NCBI GenBank assembly: GCA_045539475.1
Contig: JAZQFJ010000091.1
Span: forward strand, 28,003 to 92,002
DNA length: 64,000 nt
Reading direction: 5' to 3'
Source: Eubacteriales bacterium
GTDB lineage: Bacteria; Bacillota; Clostridia; Oscillospirales; JAAYXM01
Part shown: positions 24,490 through 63,182 of the stretch, one piece after another
Layout of the letters: each line of letters begins with the position of its first letter
Numbering within the stretch: the first letter of the stretch is position 1
Position numbers and translations under genes: made by a program
The notes under the pieces: model-generated
What the model was told of the DNA's origin: nothing
Seen by the model: the letters and a program-made list of their open reading frames with translations, nothing else
Databases searched by the model: none

Positions 24490-25920
24490 ATGCCAGCTAA
24501 GAAACCTACAGTTACTCCTGAAGAAGTGACAACTCCTCAACTTGAGGGAGAAAATGAAGCTAATTTAATAGACCGTAGTCAGAATTCCGAAGTGGCAACA
24601 TCGTTACCCCAGACCGAAACTGAAATCGTATCTGATGAAGCCACCATCATGAATGCGCTTAACTCCAATAATGAGACTGTATCTGAAGACGTGCCCATTG
24701 TCCAGACCGAACCAAACGAAGAAAACCCTTCAGCCGCCGGCTTTGAAGACGCCATGAATTCAGGAGAAAACAATGCATCTCCTCAGACTGATGCAGAAAC
24801 TCTGGAAAATCTCGCTCCAGAGCCCCCTGCTGCCGAAGAGGCGACAGAAACTCACGATGAGAACCAGACCGAACCTGAAAAGCCAAAGCGAACCCGAAGG
24901 CGGAAAGCGGATCCTGAAGATTCACAAAATCAGTCTGATACAGCGCCTGGTTCTGATAAGAATGCCAACCCGGACGGTGTCGAGATTGCTGATAAGCCTA
25001 AGCTTAGAATCAGTCTGCCAAAGCGCTCGGATATTTTATCAATTGATGACGAGCTGGGTGTCGTCACCGATGCAGATAAAGCAAAGACGGAGCTGCTCGA
25101 CCTGCTCGAATCCTACCGCGGCAAAAAACATCTGTCCGGGAAAATTCAGGGCATTGAAAATCCGACCGGGGAGCCTTCAAAATCCCTTGCAGTCCTTGCT
25201 TACGGTGAGTATAAGGTTATCATTCCTCTGCACGAAGCTGTTGAACCGCCGGATGATTTGAAAGGTCAGCCGCTTGATTATGCACTTAATTATATGCTGA
25301 ACAAACGGCTTGGCGCGGAAGTGGATTATATTGTAAAGGGTATTGATGCAAAAACAAAGATTGTAGTGGGCAGCCGTGTGGAAGCGATGCGGAATAAGCG
25401 CAAGAGCTATTACTTTGGCACAGACCGGGATGGGAACTACCTGCTTTATTCCGATATATGTGCTGAAGTCAGGGTTGTATCCGTAGTACGTTCGGGAATA
25501 TTCGTTGATCTGTTCGGACTTGAGGTGTTCATCCCGTTGCGGGAACTCAGTTATCAGCGGTTAATGGATGCAGAAGGATATTTTGCACCCGGACAAAGAG
25601 CACTCGTGAAAATCCTTGAGATCGACAGGTCAGACCGAAAACATATCCGCGTTAAAGCCTCAGTAAAGCAGGCGGGCGAGAACCCGTATGAAAAGGCACT
25701 ACGTAAGTACACTATAGGGAACCGATATGTCGGTACGGTCAGTCTGGTGGATGTGAACGGGGTATTCGTTTCCCTTGACGGTGGCATTGATTGTTTGTGT
25801 AATTACCCAAAGCGCGGCCGCCCGCCAAAGGGTGCAAGAGTTACCATAAGAGTTCTGGGCATCAACTATAACACCAATCGTATGTGGGGTGCAATCACGC
25901 ACATTGCAGCGGCAAGATAG
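24490..25920 (+). CDS. S1 RNA-binding-domain protein with an acidic disordered N-terminus
   Basis: S1-like OB segments, e.g. ICAEVRVVSVVRSGIFVDLFGLEVFIPLRELS and GNRYVGTVSLVDVNGVFVSLDGGIDCLC. The N-terminal ~170 aa are rich in E/P/T/N/D. Confidence 0.7.
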   Translation: MPAKKPTVTPEEVTTPQLEGENEANLIDRSQNSEVATSLPQTETEIVSDEATIMNALNSNNETVSEDVPIVQTEPNEENPSAAGFEDAMNSGENNASPQTDAETLENLAPEPPAAEEATETHDENQTEPEKPKRTRRRKADPEDSQNQSDTAPGSDKNANPDGVEIADKPKLRISLPKRSDILSIDDELGVVTDADKAKTELLDLLESYRGKKHLSGKIQGIENPTGEPSKSLAVLAYGEYKVIIPLHEAVEPPDDLKGQPLDYALNYMLNKRLGAEVDYIVKGIDAKTKIVVGSRVEAMRNKRKSYYFGTDRDGNYLLYSDICAEVRVVSVVRSGIFVDLFGLEVFIPLRELSYQRLMDAEGYFAPGQRALVKILEIDRSDRKHIRVKASVKQAGENPYEKALRKYTIGNRYVGTVSLVDVNGVFVSLDGGIDCLCNYPKRGRPPKGARVTIRVLGINYNTNRMWGAITHIAAAR

Positions 25921-32644: not shown

Positions 32645-32895
32645 TGACAGGAGCTTGCATCCAGGCTCTCGGTACATCGGACGAATTCCCGGTGTTAGAC
32701 TTGTTGATGATTGATACAAGGAACCGTTACGGATTTAGCGCACAGAGCGATCCATAATGATGCAAGCCAAATTGAATATGGGGCCGGAGGGCTGCTTAAT
32801 ACTTTACAGAGTCAATCGTCGGGATGAGACAACAAAATTCCCGACACGTTGGCTCTGTATTGCCATTTTTGCAGACTTTCCGGCCTTTTTCTTTA
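32645..32895 (+). ncRNA. ~250-nt structured 5' leader (two multi-stem domains, the second closed by a terminator-like stem plus U-run)
   Basis: Pairings read by eye: GCTTGCATC 32653-61 with GATGCAAGC 32759-67; GGCCGGA 32782-88 with TCCGGCC 32879-85, then TTTTT; CAGAGTC 32807-13 with GGCTCTG 32851-57; GTCGGGA 32818-24 with TCCCGAC 32839-45. Confidence 0.5.
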
Positions 32896-36111: not shown

Positions 36112-36726
36112 CTATATTTCAGAAAATGCCAACCATTGCACTGTATAGGTGTCATATGAAAATCTGCATCCGGCGCTGTTTTCAACCCAGTCGCATTTGA
36201 TACTGTACCATCCGCGAAGTTTTGATCGCAGGTGTGAATCCGTTGAAATCGGTTCAACCCATACTCTGTCATATTCTCGAAGCTCGAAACTTTCAAGGGG
36301 CTGTGTTTTTGGAACTGCACCTTCTGAATATTCCGGAGCTTTGTAATATATCTCTTTCGCTTCCTCAAACGGCACAACGACATTGTCCGGAGCTAAAAGC
36401 AGCATGCTTATAGAATCAACAATCATCCAGCCGTATTCGGTTGACCATACCGGTTGTCCGTGCATGATACGAAGGTTTGTCTGAGGTATCTGAATATCTG
36501 ATTTTTCACTTCCGTTTAGCCGAACACTGCCATTTGTTGTGTTACCAAGCAGGAAATCTGTTGAAACCTTATATAACTCAGCCATTTTGAGAACACTGTC
36601 AATGGTCGGAGATTTTCTTCCGGCTTCCCATGAACTGAGCGTTGGTTGAGAAACGCCAAGCTTTTCCGCTGCCTCAAGCAACTTCAGTTTACACATCTTT
36701 CTTGCTGTTTTGAATTGTCTTGGCAT
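36112..36726 (-). CDS. XRE-family HTH regulator with an uncharacterised ~130-aa C-terminal domain (repressor candidate)
   Basis: N-terminal KLKLLEAAEKLGVSQPTLSSWEAGRKSPTIDSVLKMAELYKVSTDFLLG. Confidence 0.75.
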   Translation of the reverse strand: MPRQFKTARKMCKLKLLEAAEKLGVSQPTLSSWEAGRKSPTIDSVLKMAELYKVSTDFLLGNTTNGSVRLNGSEKSDIQIPQTNLRIMHGQPVWSTEYGWMIVDSISMLLLAPDNVVVPFEEAKEIYYKAPEYSEGAVPKTQPLESFELREYDRVWVEPISTDSHLRSKLRGWYSIKCDWVENSAGCRFSYDTYTVQWLAFSEI

Positions 36727-37617: not shown

Positions 37618-38220
37618 ATGAGAAAAAACAAAATACGCATCATATCCATTTTAATAGCGGTGATTACGGTGTTTTCCGTCATACCGGCGCACGCTCAGAC
37701 AATCCCGCGCGAAGCTATTCCGGACAACACTCCCCAGCAAGCTGTCGATGTTGCAGAACACTACATTAAAAACACATTGATAAAGGTGCAGAATGGGATG
37801 GGGTATGCTGATGCAAAGGGTGAATCCAACAGAATCCTATTCAAAGCCTTTATCAACAAACAGACCTGCGGATACAGCTACGGTTTACTCACGATTATTG
37901 CAAATAACGCAATGTTCGAGTATAGGGATATGTATTTGCGTCCACAGGCTTATGCCGCATATGAAAAGCAGGTTAAAATTCTGCTTGCAGATTTAATTAA
38001 AGCTGTTGAGTGTGGGAAGATTACTTATGCTGATGCCAAGAAAGAGGCATACAATCGAATCTACAAATCTGTTGACCCGTCATATAACCCGAGCGACAGG
38101 TTCCTCGTTGACTTTTGTTATTGGGATGTGATTTCGGTAGACGGTGCTATGTTCAACAGAGCAAGAAAGGTTCTGCTTGATGCAGAAGCGAGATACAAGA
38201 AGCAATCCCTATGCGCTTAG
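37618..38220 (+). CDS. secreted hypothetical protein
   Basis: Signal peptide MRKNKIRIISILIAVITVFSVIPAHAQ, with RBS AAAGGAGG upstream. Confidence 0.6.
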   Translation: MRKNKIRIISILIAVITVFSVIPAHAQTIPREAIPDNTPQQAVDVAEHYIKNTLIKVQNGMGYADAKGESNRILFKAFINKQTCGYSYGLLTIIANNAMFEYRDMYLRPQAYAAYEKQVKILLADLIKAVECGKITYADAKKEAYNRIYKSVDPSYNPSDRFLVDFCYWDVISVDGAMFNRARKVLLDAEARYKKQSLCA

Positions 38221-38229
38221 TCAAAACGC

Positions 38230-38362
38230 TTGCATTATCGGGTAATGTTTGATATAATATAAATATAAGTTTCACAGTTACCCTATAAGGTAATTACAGT
38301 TTTCTTTGTCTGCAAAGTGTCTGAAGGTCTTGTACCATCAGGCACTTTTTTATTTTCTTATG
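38230..38362 (+). ncRNA. promoter + ~95-nt structured leader/small RNA + intrinsic terminator, repeat family copy 1 of 3
   Basis: TTGCAT 38230-35, 17-nt spacer, TATAAT 38253-58, ATAAGTTTCA, hairpin GTTACC/GGTAAT, then terminator AGTGTCTGA...TCAGGCACT followed by TTTTTTATTTTC. Confidence 0.6.
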
Positions 38363-38450
38363 CTTCTTTGTCAAGAAGCACATAACTGCACAGAGCGCAG
38401 GAGCGTTCCTCCGCGTTTGTGTCGTATATACTCAAGGGTGAAAACTCAAA

Positions 38451-38490
38451 AGAACTCAGAGAATGAAGATATTCTTTGAGTTCTTTTTTT
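38451..38490 (+). terminator. strong intrinsic terminator downstream of copy 1
   Basis: AGAACTCAGAGAAT (38451-64) pairs with ATTCTTTGAGTTCT (38471-84), 14 bp with one G-U, then TTTTTT. Confidence 0.8.
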
Positions 38491-41142: not shown

Positions 41143-41652
41143 ATGTATAACGGTAAAGAATCGAAATCCGACCGCTTCATAAGGATTGCAGAGGCGAGAG
41201 TCAATAAGCTCATCAAAATGATCAGGCTTCTCGGAAACTGCTCTATGAAATGCAATTATGAGTTCACTCAAAATCAGGTCAGTCAGATATTTTCAATTCT
41301 CTATGATGAACTGTATAAAGCGCGTGCAAAATATTCAATTGCAAAACGCGATAAAAAACGGTTCTCGCTCTCAAATGAGTCTGAGAAATATATGCAGGAA
41401 TACCCTCATACTGATTTGCAGCTTCCGGACGGGACAACGATCAGAGCGACAGCGATTGATGATGAGAACTTCCCGGCGATTAATATTGACCTTATAGATT
41501 TTGAGAAGGACGAACGTCTTTGCTTTGTGGAATACAATCCGGAACGCAGCTCCTGTCACAAGGTTTGCATAGGTGTTTATCAGAGTGATAAAGACGAAAC
41601 TGTATTCTATGAGCAATATGTCCGTGACAATTCACATTCACAGCCTTTATAG
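41143..41652 (+). CDS. hypothetical protein
   Basis: ATG 41143 follows GGAGG. The tracked upstream extension (41041) overlaps ligA and its terminator. Confidence 0.55.
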   Translation: MYNGKESKSDRFIRIAEARVNKLIKMIRLLGNCSMKCNYEFTQNQVSQIFSILYDELYKARAKYSIAKRDKKRFSLSNESEKYMQEYPHTDLQLPDGTTIRATAIDDENFPAINIDLIDFEKDERLCFVEYNPERSSCHKVCIGVYQSDKDETVFYEQYVRDNSHSQPL

Positions 41653-41669
41653 GCAGAAAGGAAATCATT

Positions 41670-42089
41670 ATGAATAATCGTGTCAAATATGCCATGAAGC
41701 TTCACTGGAACGAGGTGGCAAACATTATCGGTAGAATTATATCCACTTTGCTTGGACGTGAAGTAATCTGTACCGCAAGGTACGAAGACTATAACTATTG
41801 GTGTGCAGCCACGACGGAAGACGATACATTCACAGTGGAAGAACTTAATATATTGCTTAACTTTATCGCTGCAGATGCAAGTGTCCGCTACGACAATATC
41901 CCTCATGATGCAGGCACAAGCAGATCTATTGCCATGAACCTTTCGGAGATGCTGCTTTCGTTATGTCTGGAAACAACCTGGGAGCACGCATCAATCTGCA
42001 GAGATGGGCTATGGCTCGTTGGTATTGATGATGTATCTGCACTTTCAAAATCTATCAGTAAGCGAGGTGTTGGTAATGTCACAGCTTAA
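41670..42089 (+). CDS. hypothetical protein
   Basis: 139-aa ORF with RBS AAAGGAAA upstream; its start lies within a 38-nt junction that is repeated at 56786. Confidence 0.5.
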   Translation: MNNRVKYAMKLHWNEVANIIGRIISTLLGREVICTARYEDYNYWCAATTEDDTFTVEELNILLNFIAADASVRYDNIPHDAGTSRSIAMNLSEMLLSLCLETTWEHASICRDGLWLVGIDDVSALSKSISKRGVGNVTA

Positions 42090-44342: not shown

Positions 44343-44470
44343 TTGACTATTTTTACTTGATATGATATAATAAAAATATAAGTTTCAAGGTTTCAGTAAG
44401 AGAAATCACAGTTATCCAAGTTTACAAAGTGTCAATGAGCACATTCGTGCTTTTTGGCACTTTTTTATTT
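44343..44470 (+). ncRNA. promoter + structured leader/small RNA + terminator, repeat family copy 2 of 3
   Basis: TTGACT 44343-48, 17-nt spacer, TATAAT 44366-71, ATAAGTTTCA, hairpin GGTTTC/GAAATC, terminator AGTGTCAA...TTGGCACT followed by TTTTTTATTTTC. Confidence 0.6.
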
Positions 44471-45041: not shown

Positions 45042-45069
45042 GAGCTAAAGTGAGATCCGGCGTAAATTA

Positions 45070-45113
45070 AGCGCACATGAGTATCTTTTGATAATCTCGT
45101 GTGCGCTTTTTTT
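45070..45113 (+). terminator. intrinsic terminator after ssb
   Basis: AGCGCACATGAG pairs with CTCGTGTGCGCT, then TTTTTTT. Confidence 0.75.
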
Positions 45114-45518: not shown

Positions 45519-46258
45519 AAGTACCCGTAGGGAAGGGCACTATTGTAAGAGAGACTTTGCTCATCATAATAGCATTGATGCTGTTTGTGTTTATGTGCAG
45601 GCTGTGGCCGATACTGCTCTTTATGATTGTCGCTTTGTTTGTTGCAATGATTATTCTGCTATTTAAAGCATCGTCAGAGCCGAAAACGGTTGAGCCGAAG
45701 CCCATACCGTCAACAGTAAGACAACCGGTACGGATACCTTCGCAAAATGATGTATACGCACTTGCGTATTCTGTCATACTCAGACGGATTACCGAGCTTG
45801 TCCATGAAAAATATCCTCAGGCGCGTTGGATTTGGGAAGCGTCAAATGCACGCAACCTTATAGAAAACGGGGAAGATGTATACATTCTCTTGAATCGTGC
45901 CGGAGGATATGGCAGGGCTATGGTTAAAATAGTCAACCTGAGTGTCGTGGATGTCGTGTTTGGTGTTCCGGAAATTGACACATTCCCCGATGCTGCGGAT
46001 ACAGACGCTGAAGACGCGGATGAGGGTGTGCCGGAAAACTATGAGCTGATAGCCTTTGAATGGGTTCAGGCACACATTATTGATCTGAACAACAGATGCA
46101 ATGAAGCTATCGGTGAAGGCAAAAATATGGTCATCATTACGGAGGCTGAGCTTCCTGTACGGGAGAGTTGGATTGATGTATGTAAACAGCTTCAGAAGTC
46201 CGAAATCGAAAACCTTGAATGTATTCCGGAGGGAATACAGATTAATCTCACGCATTGA
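45515..46258 (+). CDS. hypothetical membrane protein
   Basis: ATGA overlap with the previous gene; N-terminal TM pair LLIIIALMLFVFMCRLWPILLFMIVALFVAMIILLF. Confidence 0.5.
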   Translation: MKVPVGKGTIVRETLLIIIALMLFVFMCRLWPILLFMIVALFVAMIILLFKASSEPKTVEPKPIPSTVRQPVRIPSQNDVYALAYSVILRRITELVHEKYPQARWIWEASNARNLIENGEDVYILLNRAGGYGRAMVKIVNLSVVDVVFGVPEIDTFPDAADTDAEDADEGVPENYELIAFEWVQAHIIDLNNRCNEAIGEGKNMVIITEAELPVRESWIDVCKQLQKSEIENLECIPEGIQINLTH

Positions 46259-46278
46259 AATGCAGAAAGGAATTTACA

Positions 46279-48153
46279 ATGAGTAATGTCACTAATCTTT
46301 TTAATTTCGGTCGCGCTCTGCCACATCCATTTGATAGCGTGACAAATAAGAAAGTCAAGGTATCGTCAAAGTATGGAGACGGAACCACATCAACATTGTG
46401 TTCGACGGTTATAAAAGCCGTGAATGCCGCTTGTGCTTGCATGAACGGTACAGGACAGGGTGCGTTTGGAACGCTTGACAGCAAGGGTATTGCTGAATAT
46501 AAGTCATCAAACAGCGCTGATGAATATCATTTGGTTGTGTATGACAGCACGGTAGGAAATCTTCTCGCTTGCGTATATGATAAAAGCACGGAAGTGATTG
46601 AAACATATACAGCTCATTCCTCTGCAAGAGACGGCGCTGCTATTGTTATGGCCATGCTCCCGGCTCTTATGGTGGATGATGAGTTCAAGGAGAATTTTGA
46701 TACATATTATGATCAGTTTCTTGCAGGATTTCTGGATATGGCTGTTACCACGGAGGCGATGGCATATATGTGTGACAACGCATATCGCCGCATCAAGGAC
46801 GATGGCTGTGCAGCGCATGTCCCTGTAGAGATTGACAAATCGGGTAATATCATGCACGTGTCGAGAAGTCATATTGACTCAGGTAATTTTACTCCGCATG
46901 CAGTTATTGGCGGAGAGTTTACTATTTTCGGTTCCACCGGACCTGCAACGATCAAAAAAGCCAGTACCTTCATTGAGCACAGTGACTTTGTAAGAAAATA
47001 CCCATTGAATTCATCAAGAGCACTTACCCCCGAAGAAGAGCTGATGGTGCCCGAGCTTCCTGAATGGTATATCATACCTCCGGAGGTCGTAGACATTTGC
47101 AAGCACGCACAGCACACCACAGGAAAGTCAATGCAGATGCGAAACTTTCTTTTACGTGGTCCTGCCGGTACAGGTAAGACAATGGGAGCAAAGGCTGTTG
47201 CAGCAGGACTCGGGCTTCCGTATAAGAAGTATACCTGCTCTGCTGGAACGGAAATATATGATTTTATCGGTCAGATCTTTCCGGATGCCGAAGGAGGCTC
47301 AACAGGAGATATACAGCTTGACCGTGAACGGCAACAGCTAAAGAGCATGGGTGGAATCAACTATACAAACGTTGCGAAGCTTATGAACCTGCCCGATCTG
47401 GACGATATGGATTACGATCCCCAAGGCGTGTATAAAGCGCTCACAGGGAAGGATAAGCCAAACGCATCCACTCAGGACTGTATGCTTATCGTGCTCAATA
47501 AAGTGACAGATAAGATAAAAGAGCTTTCCAGACGCGATGAAGCAAGTGCGTCACAAGGGCAGAGTTTCACTTATGTCGAAACCGATTTTCTGACAGCGCT
47601 CAAGAACGGATATGTTGTTGAGGTGCAAGAACCCACCACAATTATGCAACCGGGTGTATTGGTCGGACTCAACTCATTGCTTGAGCAGACCGGATCCATC
47701 ACGCTCCCGACCGGTGAGGTTATCGAACGCCATCCTGATGCTGTGGTTATCGTTACTACTAATATAAGCTATGAAGGCTGCCGCGGTATGAACCAGTCTG
47801 TCATTGACAGAATGAGTCTGGTGTGCGATGTCGAGGCTCCGGCACCTGAAGTAATGGTCCAGAGAGCGATGAGTGTCACCGGCGCAACTGATGAATACCA
47901 AGTAAGCCAAATGGTTCAGGTGGTAAACGATATTGCGGAATACTGCAGAACTCATGGCGTTACCGATGGTTCCTACGGCATGAGAAGCCTGATCGACTGG
48001 ATTGAAAGCAGTGCGATCACGAACAATGTCTATGAATCGGCATTATACACCATTATAAGCAAAGCCACTACGGACGAACTGGAACGTGAGGCTTTGATAA
48101 CATCAGTGCTTGAGCCTATTTTTGCTCCACCGAGGAAAAGAGCTTCAGCATAA
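46279..48153 (+). CDS. AAA+ ATPase (MoxR / CbbQ / CobS-like, AAA_5) with a ~290-aa unknown N-terminal domain
   Basis: Walker A LLRGPAGTGKTM and Walker B-like GYVVEVQEP, plus ITLPTGEVIERHPDAVVIVTTN. ATG 46279 follows AAAGGAA. Confidence 0.75.
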   Translation: MSNVTNLFNFGRALPHPFDSVTNKKVKVSSKYGDGTTSTLCSTVIKAVNAACACMNGTGQGAFGTLDSKGIAEYKSSNSADEYHLVVYDSTVGNLLACVYDKSTEVIETYTAHSSARDGAAIVMAMLPALMVDDEFKENFDTYYDQFLAGFLDMAVTTEAMAYMCDNAYRRIKDDGCAAHVPVEIDKSGNIMHVSRSHIDSGNFTPHAVIGGEFTIFGSTGPATIKKASTFIEHSDFVRKYPLNSSRALTPEEELMVPELPEWYIIPPEVVDICKHAQHTTGKSMQMRNFLLRGPAGTGKTMGAKAVAAGLGLPYKKYTCSAGTEIYDFIGQIFPDAEGGSTGDIQLDRERQQLKSMGGINYTNVAKLMNLPDLDDMDYDPQGVYKALTGKDKPNASTQDCMLIVLNKVTDKIKELSRRDEASASQGQSFTYVETDFLTALKNGYVVEVQEPTTIMQPGVLVGLNSLLEQTGSITLPTGEVIERHPDAVVIVTTNISYEGCRGMNQSVIDRMSLVCDVEAPAPEVMVQRAMSVTGATDEYQVSQMVQVVNDIAEYCRTHGVTDGSYGMRSLIDWIESSAITNNVYESALYTIISKATTDELEREALITSVLEPIFAPPRKRASA

Positions 48154-54308: not shown

Positions 54309-54316
54309 TTTAGTTG

Positions 54317-54347
54317 AGAGGGGTGTTATTTCGGTAGCACCTCTTTT
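54317..54347 (+). terminator. hairpin terminator after the methyltransferase gene
   Basis: AGAGGGGTG pairs with CACCTCT (one bulge), then TTTTGC. Confidence 0.5.
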
Positions 54348-54394
54348 GCTTTAGTGGAATAAGCGTACATTGCCCTATTTCTTCTGCAAATGAA

Positions 54395-54516
54395 TTGACT
54401 ATAATGAGGTTTTCTGATATAATAAATATATAAGTTTCAAGGTTTCCATAGAGAAATCACAGTTATCAGAGTTTACGAAGTGTCGTTTGCGCCATGCGCA
54501 GATGGCACTTTTTTGT
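54395..54516 (+). ncRNA. promoter + structured leader/small RNA + terminator, repeat family copy 3 of 3
   Basis: TTGACT 54395-400, 17-nt spacer, TATAAT 54418-23, ATAAGTTTCA, hairpin GGTTTC/GAAATC, terminator AGTGTC..TGCGC CAT GCGCA..GGCACT followed by TTTTTTGTTTTC. Confidence 0.6.
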
Positions 54517-54620
54517 TTTCTCGCCCAATATTTTGGACACAAGCCGACATCACCTTCGGGTTATGTTGGCTTTTGTTATATATTATCAAAGGCGAAAGCC
54601 TCAAAGAAAGGAGCATTTCT

Positions 54621-55760
54621 ATGCTACAATGTCAAGACGGTTTTTACACCACGTTCAGTTCCTATCCCACAATGAGGAACTACCATGAGGAACAGGCGAA
54701 AGAAAGCAGGTGGGTTCGCTGCAAGGTAAACGAGCTGCAGATTGAAGCACTTGACGATCCTTCGACTATGTACTCACGCCCCATCCCGTTTGCTTCGGGA
54801 ATCACAAGTGAAGCTGTGCACGACACAGCGAAAAACCTCGGCCTGGCTATGGATATTGATGGTAAAGCATACCCCATCCGTACCACGGCCTACAAAAGCC
54901 TGCTCGACAGAGCGAAAATCGGAGGCACCGTTCTCCCCAAACTCAGCCGAAAAGTGTTATCGGATGTTCTGAACGAATGTCTGAAGCTCTATCCCTCGGA
55001 TGCGCTTGTGCTCATAAGGGATCAGAAGGTATCCGCCGTTCACTCAGGTGATGAAGTGGATTATTCCGTTCTGCCGATTGATGAGCTTCTGGGCACTCTT
55101 CAGGATAAGCTGGATGCACGCTTTCCGGGAAACGAGTTTGAATACGGTTACTCGGATCATTCGATTACCAGTGCATCTTGGACGATGCCGAATCAAAAGG
55201 ATGACCTTGTCGGCGATTATGCAAAGCATTTGACCGCAATAGGTAAATCATACCTTGCAAAGAACCTTGTGCCGGGTATCAGGTTTATAACGTCGGACAC
55301 GGGGGTTGCTTCCGCAAAGGTATCGGCTCTGCTTATGGGCGGTCAGTATCCTATCCATATAGGGAGCTGTATTGCGGTGGATCACAGACATCAGTCCAAG
55401 GTCGAGAATTTTACAAATGCACTCGACCAGCTCTTTGCTCAGTTCGGGGATTCTGTTGCAAAGCTTCAGAAGCTTACGGAGATTACACTGTCATATCCGG
55501 TCAATGCAATGACAAGGATTTGCAAAAAACTCAGTATGCCGAAGAAAGCTGCACTCGGAGCAATCCGGATGTTTGAGATGTCATACGGTGGCGGACCTGC
55601 AACGGCTCATGACGTGTTTATGGCGATGCAGGAAATTATGTTTCTTCTAAAAACAGAGAATACCCCGGAGAGTAAGCTCTTGTTTATTGAAGAGAACCTT
55701 GCCAGAACCCTGTCTTTTGATTGGGATCAGTATGACCTTGCAAAGGCGGTGAACTACTGA
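54621..55760 (+). CDS. DUF932-family protein (common on conjugative elements)
   Basis: ATG 54621 follows AAAGGAG. The tracked extension (54480) would run through the copy-3 terminator. The family call is by overall resemblance. Confidence 0.55.
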   Translation: MLQCQDGFYTTFSSYPTMRNYHEEQAKESRWVRCKVNELQIEALDDPSTMYSRPIPFASGITSEAVHDTAKNLGLAMDIDGKAYPIRTTAYKSLLDRAKIGGTVLPKLSRKVLSDVLNECLKLYPSDALVLIRDQKVSAVHSGDEVDYSVLPIDELLGTLQDKLDARFPGNEFEYGYSDHSITSASWTMPNQKDDLVGDYAKHLTAIGKSYLAKNLVPGIRFITSDTGVASAKVSALLMGGQYPIHIGSCIAVDHRHQSKVENFTNALDQLFAQFGDSVAKLQKLTEITLSYPVNAMTRICKKLSMPKKAALGAIRMFEMSYGGGPATAHDVFMAMQEIMFLLKTENTPESKLLFIEENLARTLSFDWDQYDLAKAVNY

Positions 55761-56797
55761 TGGCAGCACCGATTATCCTGTGTGACACTGCCGGGATGGA
55801 CAGACCGACTTGGCTGGCCTGCCGAATGCACGGACCAAAGGGTGATATACCTTATACGGTCGGCGGCAGCGATGTTGCAGCGATTTTTGGTGTATCACCG
55901 TGGACAACACCCTTAGAGCTTTGGATGATCAAAAAAGGAAGAGCAAAGCCTTCTGTGAAGGCGAACGCAAATCAGCTGGAGATGGGACATTTCCTTGAAC
56001 CGATTGCAGCACACTTTTATGCGTTGAAGACAGGAAATACTGTGATTGAGGATACTAATATGTATCAGCACGCAGACCATAAATATGCATTGGCAGACAT
56101 TGATCGCCGAATTATTCGTGCGAACGACGGCGAACCAGGTGTACTGGAATGCAAAAGCTGTACATATCACAATGCTTCGGAATGGGCGGACGGGAAATAT
56201 CCGTTGTACTATGAATTTCAGCTCAGATACTATCTTGCAGTTCTCGACTTGAGTTTCGGAGACTTCTCAGCGTTATGGGGAAATAACCCCGATAACGATA
56301 TGGCTATGCCGGGGCTTACCCGGGACAAAGCCAAGGAGGATATGATATTTGAACGTCTTGACGAATGGATATGGAGTCTTGAGCATGATAAGCCGCCTAC
56401 GATGGACAGTATTGCGCCTAAGCTCGCTCTTGAATCTCTTGCAAGAATTTACGGAGCCGGTGACCCCAGTCTCCCGACAATAAATTTACCTGCGAAGTTC
56501 GAGAGACATGCACGTCGAATCCTTACCTTGCAGGATGAAATAGCGCTTTGCAAGAGCGATATCAAAAAATATGAAAAGGAGATAGAGGCACATTCAGTGC
56601 GAATCGCGGAGTTGATGAAGAAACACGAGCATGGGGTTATGGAAACAACCACAGATAGAATTCTTATTGATTTCGCAACTAAAACATCAACACGAACAGA
56701 CACAACACTGCTTAAGAAAAAGTATCCGGCTATCCATAACGAGCTGGTAACAACATCTGAAAGCAGAAAACTTAAATTGTCTGTCCAGCCTTTATAG
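55760..56797 (+). CDS. YqaJ-like (lambda-exonuclease fold) recombination exonuclease
   Basis: YTVGGSDVAAIFGVSPWTTPLELWMIKKGR is the YqaJ signature; also LECKS. Confidence 0.75.
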   Translation: MAAPIILCDTAGMDRPTWLACRMHGPKGDIPYTVGGSDVAAIFGVSPWTTPLELWMIKKGRAKPSVKANANQLEMGHFLEPIAAHFYALKTGNTVIEDTNMYQHADHKYALADIDRRIIRANDGEPGVLECKSCTYHNASEWADGKYPLYYEFQLRYYLAVLDLSFGDFSALWGNNPDNDMAMPGLTRDKAKEDMIFERLDEWIWSLEHDKPPTMDSIAPKLALESLARIYGAGDPSLPTINLPAKFERHARRILTLQDEIALCKSDIKKYEKEIEAHSVRIAELMKKHEHGVMETTTDRILIDFATKTSTRTDTTLLKKKYPAIHNELVTTSESRKLKLSVQPL

Positions 56798-56813
56798 GCA
56801 GAAAGGAACCATT

Positions 56814-57383
56814 ATGAATAATAACAATATTTTAAACTGCGAATGGGAACGATTTCTTGACACACAGATGCTTGATTACAACCGTTGTTGTCAAAAAGCA
56901 TATATTTGCTCTCCGCTCGGTGCGGAATCCAAAGATGTAATTCTGGAGAATATGCACTGTGCAAGAGCGTATATGCTTTATGCAGACGCAAGGCTCAATG
57001 TTGTATCAAGAGCACCTCATGCGTATTTACCTCTGCTGATCAGTGAAAAAACACCTGCAGAACGAGCACTCGCGCTTGAGTTCGGTATAAAGCTTCTTGA
57101 ACAGAGTGAAATACTTCTTGTATGTGGTATGCGTATCAGTGCGGGTATGAGAAACGAAATCGCAAGGGCTGCCGCACTCCGTATGGAAATAGTTACTTTC
57201 GACGACGATATGTTTACGGAAGTGAAGAAAATCGTTACCAAAAACGGAGGGAACAAAACTCTTGTCACACTTAATAGGGATCATCCTCTGTTAGCGTCAT
57301 TGAACCCCATTTATTACAAAGGTGGTGATGAGTTGTGGTCAGATTTCTTGAAAAGCTTAGGCTGCGCTCACAACAAAAAATGA
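56814..57383 (+). CDS. DUF4406 / nucleoside 2-deoxyribosyltransferase-like protein
   Basis: YICSPLGA...ILLVCGMRISAGMRNEIARAAALRMEIVTFD matches the usual layout of the family. Confidence 0.4.
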   Translation: MNNNNILNCEWERFLDTQMLDYNRCCQKAYICSPLGAESKDVILENMHCARAYMLYADARLNVVSRAPHAYLPLLISEKTPAERALALEFGIKLLEQSEILLVCGMRISAGMRNEIARAAALRMEIVTFDDDMFTEVKKIVTKNGGNKTLVTLNRDHPLLASLNPIYYKGGDELWSDFLKSLGCAHNKK

Positions 57384-57406: not shown

Positions 57407-57520
57407 AACTCCCGGAACGGATCACAATCGTATGCTTGTAATCTCAAAACAACAGGACGCAGTCTTGTTTCAGAGATAATTGATAAGTTTTTCGATATGA
57501 TTCGTCGCCGGGAGTTTTTC
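57407..57520 (+). other. ~110-nt long imperfect hairpin closed by a 9-bp stem plus T-run, upstream of the helicase gene
   Basis: AACTCCCGG (57407-15) pairs with CCGGGAGTT (57508-16), then TTTTT. Inner stem AACAGGAC/GTCTTGTT (57450-57469). Confidence 0.5.
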
Positions 57521-57575
57521 TTTTCCCGGACATATAACTTGTTTGCTCTTGCGGTTATAAGAAAGGAGCGATGAT

Positions 57576-59759
57576 ATGTTATGTCGGTTTAGCAGGTTGG
57601 TTTATCCGCAAAGGCTTGAGAGCATATCCCCCGGCAGCTACATGGTAGCACTCTACACGCCTTGTGAAAGGATTCTCGACAGTACCGGTGAGGCTCTTAA
57701 AACAATCAAGGCTGTGGGGTATTCGTTGCCCACTTCGGATTTGTTTCGCTATGAGCTGAAAGGTCAGTGGAATAAGAACTCAAGACATGGTCTTCAGTTT
57801 GAGGTGGAAACATTTGAGGAAGTTATTCCTCCGACAAAGGAAGGTGTTATTGCATACCTCTCATCGGGACAGATTAAAGGCATAGGTCCAAAGCTTGCAG
57901 AAAAGATATATTCGGTTTTTGGGCTGGACGCGTTGAATGTACTGGATTCGGAGCCTGAAAAACTCATAGTTATTCCGGGAATAAGCGAAGCTAAGCTCGA
58001 AAAGATTTATGATTCATATCTTGCTAACCGCGCAGCGAGAAACGTCATTGCCTTTCTTACTCCATACGGGATTACGCCGAACCGCGCATTAAAGCTCTAT
58101 AAGGAATACGGTAACGATGCCATAAAGATTGTGAAGGAACATCCGTACAGACTTTGTGAGCTTGCAGGTGTAGGATTCAAGACCGCGGATAAGATTGCAA
58201 TGAGTATGGGATTTGATATGCTCTCTCCGGAAAGGATCTCTGAAGGGATACTCTATACGCTGACAAACGCAGAGGAAAGCGGACATCTGTGCATAGAGAA
58301 GGATAATTTCATCGGTGAGTGTATGAAAACACTTGATACGCCCGAACTTACCGCCGGAATAGTCGGAAGGCATGCAAACGAACTTATACGAAACCAAAGA
58401 ATTTGTGTATATGACGACTGCCTTTACAGCGGCAGGACGTATATTGCAGAAAAAGCACTCGCGATATATCTTGAGCGTCAGATTTCATTGTGTCGGAATT
58501 ATCAGTATGACAATCTTGATGTCGAGCTGGATAACGAGGAACGGTTGCTGAAAATAAAGTTTGCACCCGAGCAACGTGAGGCAGTTAAGACCGCGCTCAC
58601 TAACGGGATCTCCATCATTACCGGAGGTCCCGGTACGGGAAAGACTATGATACAGCGTGCCATACTCGATATTTACAGCCACAGAAACCCGCGGAATATC
58701 ATCTGTTGCTGTGCGCCTACGGGACGTGCGGCACGGCGCATGGAAGAATCTACGGGATATGCAGCATCTACCATTCATAAAGCACTTTGTCTGGCGGCAG
58801 GTGAAGACGGCGAATACGGAAGTCCGGAAAACATTGATGCAAACCTTGTTCTCATCGATGAGACTTCAATGCTCGATGTATATTTGTCCGGAAAGCTGTT
58901 TTCTGCCTTAAAAACAGGCACACAAGTAATTTTTGTCGGAGATGCCGACCAGTTGCCTTCAGTTGGTCCGGGCGCTGTTCTGAACGAAATGATATGCTGT
59001 GGCAGGATTCCTACCGTAAAGCTTGAAAGGGTGTTCAGGCAAGCATCCGGCAGCCGCATTGCTACAAACGCAAAGCTTATCAAGCAGAACAATGTGGGGC
59101 TTGAATACGGTGATGATTTTCAGTTTATAGATTCGAGCGATATTTCGGCTTCGGCAGAGATTATTGCACGAATTTATGCTGAGGAAGTCGAAAGATACGG
59201 AGTGGATAATGTTGCACTGCTTACACCATTTCGGCAGAAGACCGATACCGGTGCAAATGCTCTGAACGAAAGAATACGCGATATTATTAATCCGAGCTCA
59301 CCTCAGAAACTTGAGATTACTCGCGGAATCCGCATATTTCGCTGTGGGGACAAGGTCATGCAGATAAAGAATCGGGACGATGTCAGTAATGGTGATATAG
59401 GTTATATTATCAAAATCGAAGAAGAAGCCGGAGAAAAAACGGCGTTTATTGATTTTGGTGACGGCAGAGTCAAGGAATATGATCCCGCAGACCTCGATCT
59501 TATCGATCTCGGTTATGCATCCACCATCCACAAGGCTCAAGGCGCTGAGTATAAGTCAGTTATCATTAACCTGCAGAATGCGCATTATGTGATGCTCACA
59601 CGACCGCTTGTTTATACTGCGGTAACGCGTGGTAAAGAGCATGTCATATTTGTAGGTCAAAGACGTGCGCTATGCACTGCAATTAAAAGAACAGATACCG
59701 ATAAGCGAGGCACGCGCCTTGCGAAGCGGTTGTGTGATTACTCTAATCTTAACTCTTGA
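57576..59759 (+). CDS. RecD-like SF1 DNA helicase (HhH plus AAA_30 plus UvrD_C)
   Basis: Walker A ITGGPGTGKTM, motif VGDADQLPSVGPG, motif VI-type TIHKAQGAEYKSVI. Confidence 0.9.
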   Translation: MLCRFSRLVYPQRLESISPGSYMVALYTPCERILDSTGEALKTIKAVGYSLPTSDLFRYELKGQWNKNSRHGLQFEVETFEEVIPPTKEGVIAYLSSGQIKGIGPKLAEKIYSVFGLDALNVLDSEPEKLIVIPGISEAKLEKIYDSYLANRAARNVIAFLTPYGITPNRALKLYKEYGNDAIKIVKEHPYRLCELAGVGFKTADKIAMSMGFDMLSPERISEGILYTLTNAEESGHLCIEKDNFIGECMKTLDTPELTAGIVGRHANELIRNQRICVYDDCLYSGRTYIAEKALAIYLERQISLCRNYQYDNLDVELDNEERLLKIKFAPEQREAVKTALTNGISIITGGPGTGKTMIQRAILDIYSHRNPRNIICCCAPTGRAARRMEESTGYAASTIHKALCLAAGEDGEYGSPENIDANLVLIDETSMLDVYLSGKLFSALKTGTQVIFVGDADQLPSVGPGAVLNEMICCGRIPTVKLERVFRQASGSRIATNAKLIKQNNVGLEYGDDFQFIDSSDISASAEIIARIYAEEVERYGVDNVALLTPFRQKTDTGANALNERIRDIINPSSPQKLEITRGIRIFRCGDKVMQIKNRDDVSNGDIGYIIKIEEEAGEKTAFIDFGDGRVKEYDPADLDLIDLGYASTIHKAQGAEYKSVIINLQNAHYVMLTRPLVYTAVTRGKEHVIFVGQRRALCTAIKRTDTDKRGTRLAKRLCDYSNLNS

Positions 59760-59772
59760 AAGGAGAATACAA

Positions 59773-60222
59773 ATGGCTACTATATTGGCTAAATTCAAGA
59801 AAAGGCAATCCGACATAAATGAGCAGATTGCTGCAAGCAGCCTTCCGCTTGACGAGTTGCTTGTTATGCAGGAGCTCAATTATCGCATCAGTGTACTGGA
59901 AACATTCCAGTCCTTTTGTAAGACGGCTCCGGCAACAACTGATGCAAAGGTTCTTGTGCAGCATTACAGGCTTGTTGATGTTTGTGTGCGTTATCTGCTC
60001 ACAGACCATAAGTTCGGACTGTCAACCGATGAAAAAGGTAAAACAAAGCGCGAAACAGCACATAAAGTTTTGGAAGAGATAATCCTCACCAACCAAAGAC
60101 AGTTTTCGAGCTTTGTGGCTGAAACGCAGGATCAATACAAACGGAGGCTCTCTGAATATATCAATGCAATTTTACCTATGTGGTTGCAGTACAGAGACAC
60201 CTACATAACAATAACTCTATAG
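59773..60222 (+). CDS. hypothetical protein
   Basis: ATG 59773 follows AAGGAGA; 149 aa. Confidence 0.5.
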   Translation: MATILAKFKKRQSDINEQIAASSLPLDELLVMQELNYRISVLETFQSFCKTAPATTDAKVLVQHYRLVDVCVRYLLTDHKFGLSTDEKGKTKRETAHKVLEEIILTNQRQFSSFVAETQDQYKRRLSEYINAILPMWLQYRDTYITITL

Positions 60223-60233
60223 GAGGATCAGGT

Positions 60234-61007
60234 ATGAGTCAGAAAAACTCGAATGAGAAAGCGGCTATGATGCCATATATAGAAGACATCAATAAAATCG
60301 AAGGCTTTGATCCCGCACCGTTTGCGATAGATTATACCGACCTGAAAACAGGAGAGGTAAGAAAACGCTTGCCGGTTGTGATCAGGATTGCAATGTTTCG
60401 TATGAAGCATCTGCAAGGAAAGATTGCGGTTCAGGCAACTGCCGTTAAAGACGGCTTTGTCGCACAGGCAAGGGTATATCCGAACTACAAAGACGGTCCG
60501 GATGAGTTCCTTGCCGAAGCCTCGGCTTTCAGGGGCGCGTGTCCGGATAAACCCTCTGTTTCACCACGCGAATGGGCGCAAACGGCAGCCGTAGGGATTG
60601 CGCTTCGCAATGCCGGATTCGGAGTACAGTTTGATGTTGCAGGCGAAGATGTTGTTGAAACTATGGATGATGAATTTTCAGGCTCAACAGAAACATCGGC
60701 TTCAGGTGTAAAACCGGATGTAATGCCTTCAGGTTCAGAGAAAAGTCCGGATGCAGAATATACTGTTGCGCCGACATACAACGCTGAACCGCCCAAAGAA
60801 CTGACGCTTGAGGAACGGGTTCAGGAAGCTATGAAGGTTCCTTGCCCGATTGCCAAATTTAACGGCAGACCGCTTGGAGAGGTTCTTCGTGAAGACCAGA
60901 ATGCTGTTGTGTGGACGGCTACAAAATTCAGCGGTGATGAAAAAATCAGAGAAGCTGCACAGCTTATATGTGAATATGCCATGGAGCAGACACAAACTGA
61001 TGCGTAA
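60234..61007 (+). CDS. Rad52/Sak-like single-strand annealing protein (candidate)
   Basis: LPVVIRIAMFRMKHLQGKIAV and AQTAAVGIALRNAGFGVQF resemble the R..WFR and AeT.A..RAL...GfG segments of phage Sak/Rad52-type proteins. Confidence 0.45.
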   Translation: MSQKNSNEKAAMMPYIEDINKIEGFDPAPFAIDYTDLKTGEVRKRLPVVIRIAMFRMKHLQGKIAVQATAVKDGFVAQARVYPNYKDGPDEFLAEASAFRGACPDKPSVSPREWAQTAAVGIALRNAGFGVQFDVAGEDVVETMDDEFSGSTETSASGVKPDVMPSGSEKSPDAEYTVAPTYNAEPPKELTLEERVQEAMKVPCPIAKFNGRPLGEVLREDQNAVVWTATKFSGDEKIREAAQLICEYAMEQTQTDA

Positions 61008-61060
61008 ATTTTTCGGGAAATCAGGGGATGGCATTAAGCTGTCCCCGGAAAGGAGTCTGT

Positions 61061-62125
61061 ATGGAGCGGTTCCACATAACGGATGTAATATCGTTGCTTA
61101 ACTTACCACCTCCGCCGCAAGGACGTAGTTCATACTACATACAATGTCCATGCTGTGATGATTCCCCACGCGAAAAGCATCTGAATATCAACTTAAGAAA
61201 GGATGTATTCCGATGTCCTAAATGCGGTGTTTTCGGCGGTATCTTTGATTTCTACGCGTTATTCACGGGAGTGCCGAGAGATAAAGTGCATAAAACACTT
61301 CTAAATAGCCTCGGTGCTCCTGAAAAGCTCAACAGGAGCAGAAAAAATGTTACATGCACTCCTGTTGTTGAATGCCCTGTTACGGATATCGAAACACGCC
61401 ACGCTACATATTCCGCGCTCCTTTCCAAGCTATCGCTTGCTCAGGACCACAGACAAAATCTTCTTGAGCGAGGATTAACCGATGATGATATATCAAGGCT
61501 CGGCTACAGAACAACGCCGGTTGTCGGTATGTCAGTCATCGCCAGACAGCTTCAGACTGAAGGATATTATCTTGCCGGTGTTCCCGGATTCTTCAGAACA
61601 GACAGCGGAGAATGGTCTTTTGTTCAGGAGCAAAGAGGAATCCTTATTCCGGTAAGAGATGTACGAGGCAGAATACAGGGACTTCAAATACGCCGTGATA
61701 ATGTTCAGAAACGAAAATTCAGGTGGGTTTCCAGTGCTGATAAAAAGGACGGATGCCGGGCTGAGGCGTGGACGCATATCGCCGGTCCCGTAAGACCAAT
61801 GGCAGTGCTTACTGAGGGACCGATGAAGGCAGATGTGATTCATTCACTTACAGGGCTCACGGTAATCGCGGTTCCGGGAGTGAATACTTTAACTCAGCTT
61901 GAGAAGACGTTGAAGGAATTACGCAAAGAAGGATTATGCGAAATAATGACCGCCTTCGATATGGATTTATCCACGAACGAGCATGTTCAAAAAGCGTACA
62001 ATCAACTGCTTAAGCTTCTTGATGATATGAACTTCAGATTTGGGACCTATGTATGGATCCCCTATTATAAAGGACTCGATGATTTTATTTGGGAATATAT
62101 GCTCAAATGCAGAAAATCACAGTAA
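61061..62125 (+). CDS. zinc-finger (CHC2-type) plus Toprim-domain primase-like protein
   Basis: CPCCDDSPREKHLNINLRKDVFRCPKCG, Toprim-like AVLTEGPMKADVIHSLTGLTVIAVPGV and AFDMDLS. ATG 61061 follows AAAGGAG. Confidence 0.7.
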   Translation: MERFHITDVISLLNLPPPPQGRSSYYIQCPCCDDSPREKHLNINLRKDVFRCPKCGVFGGIFDFYALFTGVPRDKVHKTLLNSLGAPEKLNRSRKNVTCTPVVECPVTDIETRHATYSALLSKLSLAQDHRQNLLERGLTDDDISRLGYRTTPVVGMSVIARQLQTEGYYLAGVPGFFRTDSGEWSFVQEQRGILIPVRDVRGRIQGLQIRRDNVQKRKFRWVSSADKKDGCRAEAWTHIAGPVRPMAVLTEGPMKADVIHSLTGLTVIAVPGVNTLTQLEKTLKELRKEGLCEIMTAFDMDLSTNEHVQKAYNQLLKLLDDMNFRFGTYVWIPYYKGLDDFIWEYMLKCRKSQ

Positions 62126-62132
62126 TAATTTA

Positions 62133-62170
62133 TGAGGTACAGCTACACAAAACGCTGTACCTCATTTTTT
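62133..62170 (+). terminator. intrinsic terminator after the primase gene
   Basis: TGAGGTACAGC pairs with GCTGTACCTCA (11 bp), then TTTTTT. Confidence 0.85.
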
Positions 62171-62264: not shown

Positions 62265-63182
62265 ATGTTAATTTCAATCGACCATGGTAATTCAGCTATC
62301 AAGACTCTGAACCACTCGTTCGTTTCGGGGCTGTCCGAACACACAGTGAGACCGCCAATCTCAGATGAGATACTTGAGTATGGAGGAAGCTACTGGACGC
62401 TCAGCAGTAAACGGATTACATACATGATGGATAAAACCGAGGACGAGCGATTTTTTGTTCTGACGCTGTTTGCTATTGCAAAAGAGCTTGAATCCGCAGG
62501 CAGATATATGCCTGTAGAGAATATTGACCTTGCAGTCGGACTTCCGCCTGAGCATTACGGTGTGTTAAAAGAGCGTTTTGCAAACTATTTCAAGAAAGAA
62601 AATGAAGTTCGCTTTGTTTATAACGACAGGGCGTATTGTATCGTTATAAACAGAGTAATGGTGTTTCCACAGGCTTATGCGGCTGTTGTTCCCAAGAGCA
62701 ACCTTGTTGTAACTACCATGCGAATGTTCGTTGTAGATATAGGCGGATACACAACTGATGTGCTTCTCCTTCGTAACGGTAAGCCGGATATGCAGTTCTG
62801 CCGAAGTCTGGAGTCGGGGATTATAACGATGAACAATGAGATTGCCCGCAAGGTTAATATACTGCATAACATGAATATTGACGACGAGCACGTCAGTGCT
62901 GTTCTCAGTGGTAAAGAAACTATCCTGCCGCAAGAGGTCAAGGATGCAATAGTGGCAGAAACGAAAATCCATGCAAAGGGCATTCTGGATCAGCTCCGTG
63001 AACTGCAGGTGGATTTGCGTTCAAACCCGGCAATATTTGTCGGAGGGGGAAGTATTCTGCTCCGTCCGTTTATTGAAAATTCCCCGTTAGTGGCAAAGGC
63101 GGAATTTATTACTTCGACGAATGCGAATACCATAGGGTATGATATGCTCGGTCGGATGAAGCTTTCCAAATCGACCTCATAA
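62265..63182 (+). CDS. ParM/StbA-like actin-type partition ATPase
   Basis: MLISIDHGNSAIKT (phosphate 1), VVDIGGYTTDVLLL (phosphate 2), IFVGGGSILL (adenosine). Confidence 0.75.
   Translation: MLISIDHGNSAIKTLNHSFVSGLSEHTVRPPISDEILEYGGSYWTLSSKRITYMMDKTEDERFFVLTLFAIAKELESAGRYMPVENIDLAVGLPPEHYGVLKERFANYFKKENEVRFVYNDRAYCIVINRVMVFPQAYAAVVPKSNLVVTTMRMFVVDIGGYTTDVLLLRNGKPDMQFCRSLESGIITMNNEIARKVNILHNMNIDDEHVSAVLSGKETILPQEVKDAIVAETKIHAKGILDQLRELQVDLRSNPAIFVGGGSILLRPFIENSPLVAKAEFITSTNANTIGYDMLGRMKLSKSTS

Follow-up and report, generated by a model that had tools for sequence, protein, structure and literature searches.

A recurrent promoter, leader RNA and terminator cassette predicted before DNA-processing operons of gut Clostridia conjugative elements

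A cassette made up of a predicted sigma-A promoter, a leader of about 50 nucleotides (nt) and a strong intrinsic terminator, T1, occurs three times in a 64,000-nucleotide stretch of DNA from an Eubacteriales bacterium (assembly GCA_045539475.1, contig JAZQFJ010000091.1, positions 28,003 to 92,002). This whole 64-kb stretch is called the window here, and positions are counted from its first letter. The copy of interest, copy 3 (54395-54519), lies before an operon of recombination, helicase and primase genes; like the other copies, the named hairpins and terminators and the genes of that operon, it is on the + strand. Comparison with its relatives confirms, as far as sequence and predicted folds can, that copy 3 truly belongs to a widespread, uncatalogued family of promoter-leader RNA-terminator cassettes of gut Clostridia conjugative elements. 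The genes behind it probably need regulated read-through for their expression. We give about an even chance to the idea that copy 3 is gated by terminators, with a constitutive promoter whose output is opened by a factor acting, probably processively, on the nascent leader.

Anatomy and distribution of the cassette

Copy 3 begins with a near-consensus sigma-A-type promoter (54395-54423, TTGACT-17-TGaTATAAT), in which a -35 hexamer TTGACT (54395-54400) is followed by a 17-bp spacer, the TG of an extended -10 (54415-54416) and TATAAT (54418-54423). The hexamers match the sigma-A/sigma-70 consensus at 11 of 12 positions and the TG is present, as expected of a member of the sigma-A class. The promoter string has one exact match in the window, against 0.00 by chance, and the transcription start site would lie near 54430. 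Directly 3' of the -10 the sequence reads AAATATATAAGTTTCAA; unit U1 (AAGUUUCA, 54432-54439, about +3 to +10 of the RNA) doubles as a -10-like nAGUnU hexamer. Folding and covariation then identify a hairpin, P1 (GGUUUC-CAUAGA-GAAAUC, 54441-54458, arms at 54441-54446 and 54453-54458). The stretch between P1 and T1 reads ACAGTTATCAGAGTTTACGAAGTGTC, and units U2, U3 and U4 (ACAGUUAUC, AGAGUUUAC and GAAGUGUC, 54459-54484) place an AGU every 9 nt, U4 forming the 5' arm of T1. The terminator itself (54477-54519) is a hairpin at 54477-54511, AAGTGTC-GTTTGCGC-CAT-GCGCAGAT-GGCACTT, with a T6-G-T4 run reaching 54519; its 16-bp stem, CAU loop and U6-G-U4 tract are those of a predicted intrinsic terminator. 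It is the top terminator call of the region, and copy 3 folds at -27.5 kcal/mol (z = -4.6 against shuffles).

That this is the third copy of a repeated leader module, as the original prediction had it, is borne out by repeat search, alignment and a covariance model. The repeat search ties copy 3 to sequences beginning at 38224 and 44337, with 84-91% identity to copy 2. Copy 1 (38230-38352) precedes a ligase operon and has its own second terminator (38448-38490), while copy 2 (44343-44467) precedes ssb, which is followed by a strong terminator (45069-45113). The three copies align throughout and share the same two-hairpin fold (z-scores -3.6 to -4.6). Their T1 stem interiors vary yet all pair, and the three do not differ in the base AGTGTC/GGCAC or the U-tract, just as had been claimed from copy 3. 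Under a covariance model of the copies and their close relatives, copy 3 reaches 79-93 bits (E ~1e-17); the genome as a whole contains exactly three module copies.

The module has no match in Rfam 15, whose sole hit in the window is the DUF3268 RNA at 32646-32768. The best result of a permissive Rfam search of 54380-54640 was rli56, whose 19.8 bits (E 0.53) fall short of the threshold of 47. Copy 3 is unlike a riboswitch or T-box in having a single hairpin, a loop that is not conserved and no alternative fold; folding of its leader found no antiterminator pairing able to compete with T1. A leader peptide was considered and rejected, there being neither a ribosome-binding site nor a conserved open reading frame (ORF), and the frame being interrupted in orthologs.

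Relatives were collected with a strict pattern, which gave 8 in species genomes, and a looser one, which gave at least 120 metagenome loci; models R1 and R2 confirm 91 copies, representing 58 sequences below 90% identity. The metagenome loci are short, so the comparison covers the cassette and its immediate neighbours, and whole-element gene content falls outside it. Among 56 non-redundant members, the promoter spacer is 17 bp in 53, the TG is present in 53, TATAAT is exact in 45 and the -35 matches at least 5 of 6 positions in 49. The promoter stands at a fixed distance from the leader in almost every copy, and its spacer sequence is not conserved among distant members. Anatomy, conservation, covariation (below) and positional orthology of the cassette are all matters of observation. 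It occupies the same three orthologous sites, before ssb, before the 379-amino acid (aa) first gene of the copy 3 operon and before the ligase operon, in elements with no more than 57-70% protein identity. It always stands directly before one of a few operons, in sense orientation, and occasionally precedes a methylase gene or a single ~150-aa gene. Extra module copies in three loci (L084:2506-2597, L115:3344-3436 and L079:894-983) stand before single ~150-aa genes that have been inserted just ahead of the DUF932-like operon, or directly before a methylase gene; such arrangements look like a reuse of the cassette for cargo genes.

The module follows the element rather than the host. In the window lies an integrated conjugative element that encodes a VirB4-like ATPase, a VirD4 coupling protein, a TrbL-like protein and an NlpC/P60 hydrolase. 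Three further carriers, two of them with three copies at similar spacing, came from a sample of 150 genomes of the class; three is the typical number per element. In 31 genomes from the host's family, the first model turned up nothing convincing; its two weak matches (E ~1e-3, 31-32 bits) do not look like modules on inspection. Phage and plasmid collections yielded one unannotated phage-labelled contig and no plasmid relative. The family of the first gene behind copy 3 comprises 1680 clusters of proteins at 90% identity (E <= 0.001), and 547 blocks of an assembly collection list one of its variants; the carrier elements are very common in human-gut Clostridia.

Leader structure, tandem terminators and models of read-through

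Covariation strongly supports P1. All 6 of its pairs have changed on both sides somewhere in the family; pairing holds in 92% of cells, compared with 79% after shuffling and 38-54% in slid controls, and 115 cells have changed on both sides where 39 were expected. The loop is not conserved. As the alignment has it, only the structure of P1 is constrained, not its sequence. P1 sequence was also considered as a determinant of specificity and rejected, since copies 2 and 3 share it in some elements and not in others. G-U pairs of P1 occur on the sense strand only, and the structures are therefore placed on that strand. In T1, the base is invariant and the interior covaries across the family.

Outside P1, the conserved leader positions are single-stranded and form direct repeats whose flanks vary. 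The consensus is uaAGUuUCa for U1 (about +3 to +10), cACAGUUu for U2, directly after P1, CAgAGUUu for U3, which follows U2, and CAnAGUGUCA for U4, in the 5' arm of T1. U2 and U4 always contain AGU, U1 does so in 57 of 58 representatives, and U3 in about two thirds of them, with NGU or GAU in the remainder. Copies not retrieved by the search pattern keep the AGU units too. Spacing between U2, U3 and U4 is 8-10 nt. The distance from U1 to U2 ranges from 26 to 35 nt and varies with the length of P1, so that the units would be adjacent in the folded RNA rather than phased on the DNA. An array of the form AGT-N5-7-NGT-N5-7-AGTGT is found only at the three modules in 64 kb. Taken as RNA, repeated units of this kind suggest a multimeric protein that binds single strands.

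Direct repeats with a 9-bp period could instead be DNA operators for a repressor of the element, comparable to the Reg576 heptamer pairs of plasmid p576, with the terminators acting as insulators against outside transcription. The period does equal the dual-motif layout of p576, a repeated regulatory sequence before establishment-type operons follows the EGeRS logic of pLS20 and p576 (PMC8708921), and a repressor with a cI/RstR-like helix-turn-helix is encoded at 36112-36726. Yet the repeats lie at +30 to +55, within the transcript and overlapping T1 rather than over the promoter; the AGT array appears nowhere else in the window, for instance not at the repressor's own promoter; the DNA phasing of U1 and U2 is variable; and terminators downstream of a promoter cannot insulate against transcription from upstream. 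We regard operators as a remote prospect.

The position of U1 invites another explanation, in which antitermination is templated by DNA as in phage lambda: the -10-like element would pause sigma-A, and a Q-like protein of the element would board RNA polymerase there and carry it past T1 and the further terminators T2 and T3 described below. U1 lies 9-10 nt after the -10 in 43 of 56 members, a nearly fixed distance, and its nAGUnU keeps two key -10 positions, the A at position 2 and the T at position 6 (nAnnnT at about +2 to +8). Constitutive promoter, short RNA and terminator match PR'-6S-tR', and several terminators lie downstream. What makes this account distinctly unlikely is that the -35/-10 spacer, where Q would be expected to bind, is not conserved among distant members, that P1 covaries strongly although such a mechanism has no need of it, and that U2-U4 are left unexplained. 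Pfam scans of about 60 ORFs of the window, a few of which were also compared with PHROGs or NCBIfam, contain no Q-like protein.

Copy 3 does not end its series of hairpins at T1; the original prediction missed a second terminator and the small hairpins between T1 and the ribosome-binding site. Folding places a small hairpin, H0 (CCAA-UAUU-UUGG), at 54525-54536, and this recurs in most orthologous leaders. T2 follows at 54537-54579, AAGCCGACAUcACC-UUCG-GGUuAUGUUGGCUU and then UUUUGUU; its stem of about 13 bp and its U-tract again have the form of an intrinsic terminator. None of the 39 unique orthologous leaders lacks T2; its energy there is -12 to -26 kcal/mol, at least 4 U always follow it, and 7 of 8 consensus pairs show compensatory changes. 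A further hairpin, H3 (AGGC-GAAA-GCCU, 54590-54601), stands before the ribosome-binding site and covaries, with GGCGG/CCGUC and GGGC/GCCC in relatives. Inside the operon, between the genes for a DUF7768 protein and RecD2, lies T3, a long terminator-like hairpin (57407-57524); L026 and L027 have a simple terminator at this site. Leaders of the copy 1 type carry a second strong terminator as well (38448-38490 in the window). In G179, a distant integrative and conjugative element (ICE) whose DUF932-like protein is 32% identical, the leader is non-homologous and is not recognised by the model, and the order of consensus promoter, T1, T2, small hairpin and ribosome-binding site is kept. The G179 leader (L161, G179:C9:53500-57500, minus strand, about 2420-2720) is longer, with a promoter TTGACA-17-TGATATAAT and two tandem terminators.

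These tandem terminators bear on how far any antitermination would have to reach. It might be purely local and non-processive, of the HutP/LicT/TRAP kind, with a multimeric RNA-binding protein on the AGU units sequestering only the 5' arm of T1; T2 and H3 would then be leaky attenuators, or hairpins that stabilise or process the mRNA. Triplet repeats, three to four in number and regularly 8-10 nt apart, the last of them within the terminator arm, fit this well, as do the lack of an alternative RNA fold and the lack of a canonical second terminator in copy 2. T2, though, keeps a full hairpin and U-tract in every one of 39 copy-3-type leaders and lacks an AGU array, tandem terminators occur also in copy 1 and in the distant G179 element, and no partner protein was identified among the candidates examined. 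A local effect is, to our minds, quite unlikely.

It is also conceivable that the short RNA is itself the product, three strong promoters giving abundant RNAs of about 85 nt, with exposed AGU units, that would work in trans by sponging up a protein or as a base-pairing small RNA, with read-through into the operons a fixed low leak. A consensus promoter followed by a strong T1 should indeed make the short RNA the main product, and its single-stranded sequence is conserved. We nevertheless think this very unlikely. The leader has no complementary partner in the 64-kb window that is better than chance or shared between copies, the cassette is always directly before a few operons in sense orientation, and T2, H3 and the context of the ribosome-binding site co-evolve with it.

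The reading we prefer, a terminator-gated cassette opened on the nascent leader, would work as follows. The near-consensus sigma-A promoter would need no activator and would fire by default. RNA polymerase would halt about 85 nt on, at T1, leaving a short RNA as the default product; any polymerase that escaped would meet T2 about 60 nt further and then T3 inside the operon. By default, then, the DUF932-like, YqaJ, DUF7768, RecD2 and primase genes would be silent, and their expression would require an antitermination event set up on the nascent leader. P1 would bring the 5'-terminal U1 beside the tandem U2-U4 (CAnAGUkU, period 9-10 nt). A factor recognising the single-stranded units, most likely encoded by the element but possibly RNA polymerase itself, would then either hold the T1 arm open or, more likely, turn the elongation complex terminator-resistant. 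The latter is preferred because T1, T2 and T3 stand in tandem. Processive modification would be the most economical account, given tandem terminators in two of the three cassette types, terminators within operons and the precedent of conAn and canT. Promoter activity, termination, the existence of a factor and its processivity are all predictions of this scheme. As the same cassette stands before the ssb and ligase operons, the three DNA-processing operons would form one regulon.

A bolder form of the same proposal, unlikely but worth stating, is a new factor-dependent system of processive antitermination. Here a multimeric RNA-binding protein of the element would board RNA polymerase at the promoter-proximal terminator by way of the four AGU units, which P1 gathers together, and carry it through T1, T2 and the terminators within the operon. 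Were this so, the leader of about 50 nt would be the smallest known antitermination signal, and through the factor the entire DNA-processing regulon would be turned on in a very common family of conjugative elements of gut Firmicutes.

Several points weigh against terminator gating by a leader-bound factor. RNA-only processive antiterminators are, to our knowledge, all much larger than a one-hairpin leader of about 50 nt. The search pattern itself accounts in part, by ascertainment, for the invariance of ACAGTT, AGTGTC and GGCAC. Leaders of the copy 2 type have a hairpin without an adjacent U-tract, and so no canonical T2. No factor was identified among the candidates examined, which were a 200-aa protein upstream of copy 1 and a protein with an S1 domain; proteins related to the latter also occur in ICEs where the model finds no module, so that the presence of an S1 protein is not informative on a role as the factor.

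The two candidates are of some interest in themselves. The 200-aa protein (37618-38220), which has a signal peptide at its N-terminus, has its gene directly before copy 1, an adjacency kept at 48-66% identity in G117, G147, L007 and L109. It was rejected as a Q-like factor on account of the signal peptide, its having only 60 homologs, and its replacement by unrelated ORFs in other elements. The other is a 476-aa protein (24490-25920) with one S1 RNA-binding domain, encoded directly after the VirD4 coupling protein. It occurs in all three of the module-bearing genomes that were found, and its adjacency to the coupling protein extends to more distant elements (G179:C15, G071:C1 and G037:C16).

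Whatever its mechanism, the cassette precedes genes for ssb, ligase, methylase, recombination exonuclease, helicase and primase, that is, functions in replication, transfer and establishment. As a compact and portable combination of promoter, leader and double terminator, it offers a testable handle on when these elements become active.

The operon behind copy 3 and its surroundings

The claim that copy 3 heads an independently transcribed operon gains support from the terminator predicted behind the upstream gene. A DNA methylase gene ends at 54308, and a hairpin, GAGAGGGGTGTTA..TAGCACCTC followed by TTTTGC (54316-54349), closes it 45 nt before the copy 3 -35; L026 and L028 have equivalent hairpins. 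Since the methylase operon would thus be closed by its own terminator, copy 3 would start a new transcription unit. The probable end of that unit is T4, a strong terminator at 62132-62170, after the primase gene.

The first gene is best read from ATG 54621, 7 nt after the ribosome-binding site AAAGGAG (54607-54613), as had been proposed. A longer ORF, 54480-55760, is real and would run through T1, also as first noted; its GTG lies inside the T1 5' arm and has no ribosome-binding site. The 120 homologs listed (down to 69% identity) are almost all of 379-380 aa and cover 99-100% of the query, with one exception of 403 aa. [Clostridium] leptum, Longicatena caecimuris and Thomasclavelia are among the named sources of such homologs. 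Across 43 orthologous loci (39 distinct leader intervals) the Met corresponding to 54621 opens the protein sequence, M(L/Q)xCQDxYxTTF, and is preceded by GAAAGGAG, which is near-invariant at the ribosome-binding site in 37 aligned leaders. An in-frame stop lies upstream of the ATG in 35 of the 39 leaders, in 30 of them downstream of the start of T1, and 14 of the 39 have no alternative in-frame start at all. As these comparisons read, the long ORF from 54480 is an accident of copy 3.

The product of the first gene (54621-55760, 379 aa) has no sequence match in Pfam, PHROG, NCBIfam or PDB. The DUF932 hidden Markov model (PF06067) fails to hit the window protein even at E up to 10, and hits none of 19 family members at E up to 1. 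An AlphaFold model from a 19-sequence alignment has a pLDDT (per-residue confidence) of 87. Foldseek against BFVD, a set of predicted structures, returns phage DUF932/TIGR03299 proteins as top hits (E 1e-12 to 1e-13, TM scores 0.6-0.7); no PDB structure matches at E <= 0.001. The earlier label of DUF932 thus stands as to fold and finds no backing from the Pfam model, and "DUF932-like by fold" would be a fair label for the modelled protein.

Next come genes for a YqaJ/RecE-like exonuclease (55760-56797) and a DUF7768 protein (56814-57383), and, after T3, for RecD2 helicase, an 87-aa ORF, a 275-aa ORF and a DUF3854/Toprim primase, in that order (57576-62125). Of the functions first assigned to this operon, YqaJ, RecD2 helicase and DUF3854/Toprim primase hold, and the "annealing protein" (60180-61007) is without support. 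For the DUF7768 protein there is a PHROG match (E 1e-12) whose annotation is nucleoside 2-deoxyribosyltransferase, an unusual partner beside a recombination exonuclease and a helicase. After the primase terminator comes a ParM/Alp7A-like actin gene (62265-63182), which is unusual for an integrated element.

A short hairpin, GCCTTTATAGGC, is repeated three times together with a ribosome-binding site and first codons ATGAATAAT/ATGAGTAAT (41643-41678, 46252-46287 and 56788-56823), once within each of the three module-headed operons; it may be a shared translational or processing signal, or reflect paralogous gene starts. The strong intrinsic terminator directly after ssb (45069-45113) falls within an operon that continues into MoxR-AAA/VWA genes, which implies differential expression or a need for antitermination. 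For regulation and excision the element has an excisionase-like ORF and the cI/RstR-like repressor (36112-36726), and it also encodes a sigma factor behind the DUF3268 leader RNA.

Comparison with known systems

The closest parallel in layout is the lambda PR'-qut-6S RNA-tR' region and its antiterminator Q. As predicted for the cassette, a strong constitutive promoter there has a terminator within about 100-200 nt of it, so that transcription yields a short RNA by default and reaches the later genes only with a polymerase that resists termination; both have a -10-like hexamer in the initially transcribed region. The cassette differs in having no conserved DNA element in or next to the promoter spacer and no Q homolog in the scans of window ORFs; it has instead a covarying RNA hairpin, tandem single-stranded repeats and three copies per element. 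The nut sites (boxA and boxB) used by N and the put RNA of HK022 are likewise short cis-acting RNAs just downstream of early promoters, present in several copies per genome, combining linear sequence with a hairpin and followed by several terminators. In boxB, however, the loop is conserved whereas that of P1 is not, and put has two hairpins. In the cassette, the terminator is an integral, sequence-invariant part of the module, and there is no sequence or Rfam similarity to either.

Processive antitermination is established in Gram-positive conjugative elements, by conAn of pLS20 (PMC8191782) and canT of Tn916 (PMC11658703). Like the operons considered here, those controlled by conAn1/conAn2 and canT have several intrinsic terminators. 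Both signals are complex (260-600 bp for conAn2, PMC8191782; about 340-450 nt for canT, PMC11658703) and occur once per element, before the conjugation operon. Here, by contrast, a leader of about 50 nt is present in three copies, before DNA-processing operons rather than the type IV secretion operon. Judged by the description of conAn (PMC8191782), in which conAn2 adjoins the 3' side of the conAn1 gene as the conjugation operon begins, copy 3 is not one, having no preceding small gene, a leader of only about 50 nt and a position away from the type IV secretion operon. Nor does copy 3 match the Rfam model of EAR, which, like put and canT, is an RNA-only signal that works in cis on heterologous terminators further down and needs no protein of the element.

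The EGeRS of pLS20 and p576 resemble the cassette as conserved regulatory sequences before several operons with ssb, anti-restriction and DNA-processing ("establishment") functions. EGeRS1 is 420-750 bp long and GC-rich, with no constitutive promoter, and EGeRS2 consists of a promoter with repressor operators and no terminator (PMC8708921). There is no sequence relation, and the parallel is one of logic only, not of mechanism. The targets of HutP, TRAP and LicT, finally, have regularly spaced triplet repeats or a site overlapping a terminator arm, and like the cassette no riboswitch-like aptamer. The triplet AGU and the period of 9-10 nt set the cassette apart from them, and its tandem terminators argue for more than a local effect.
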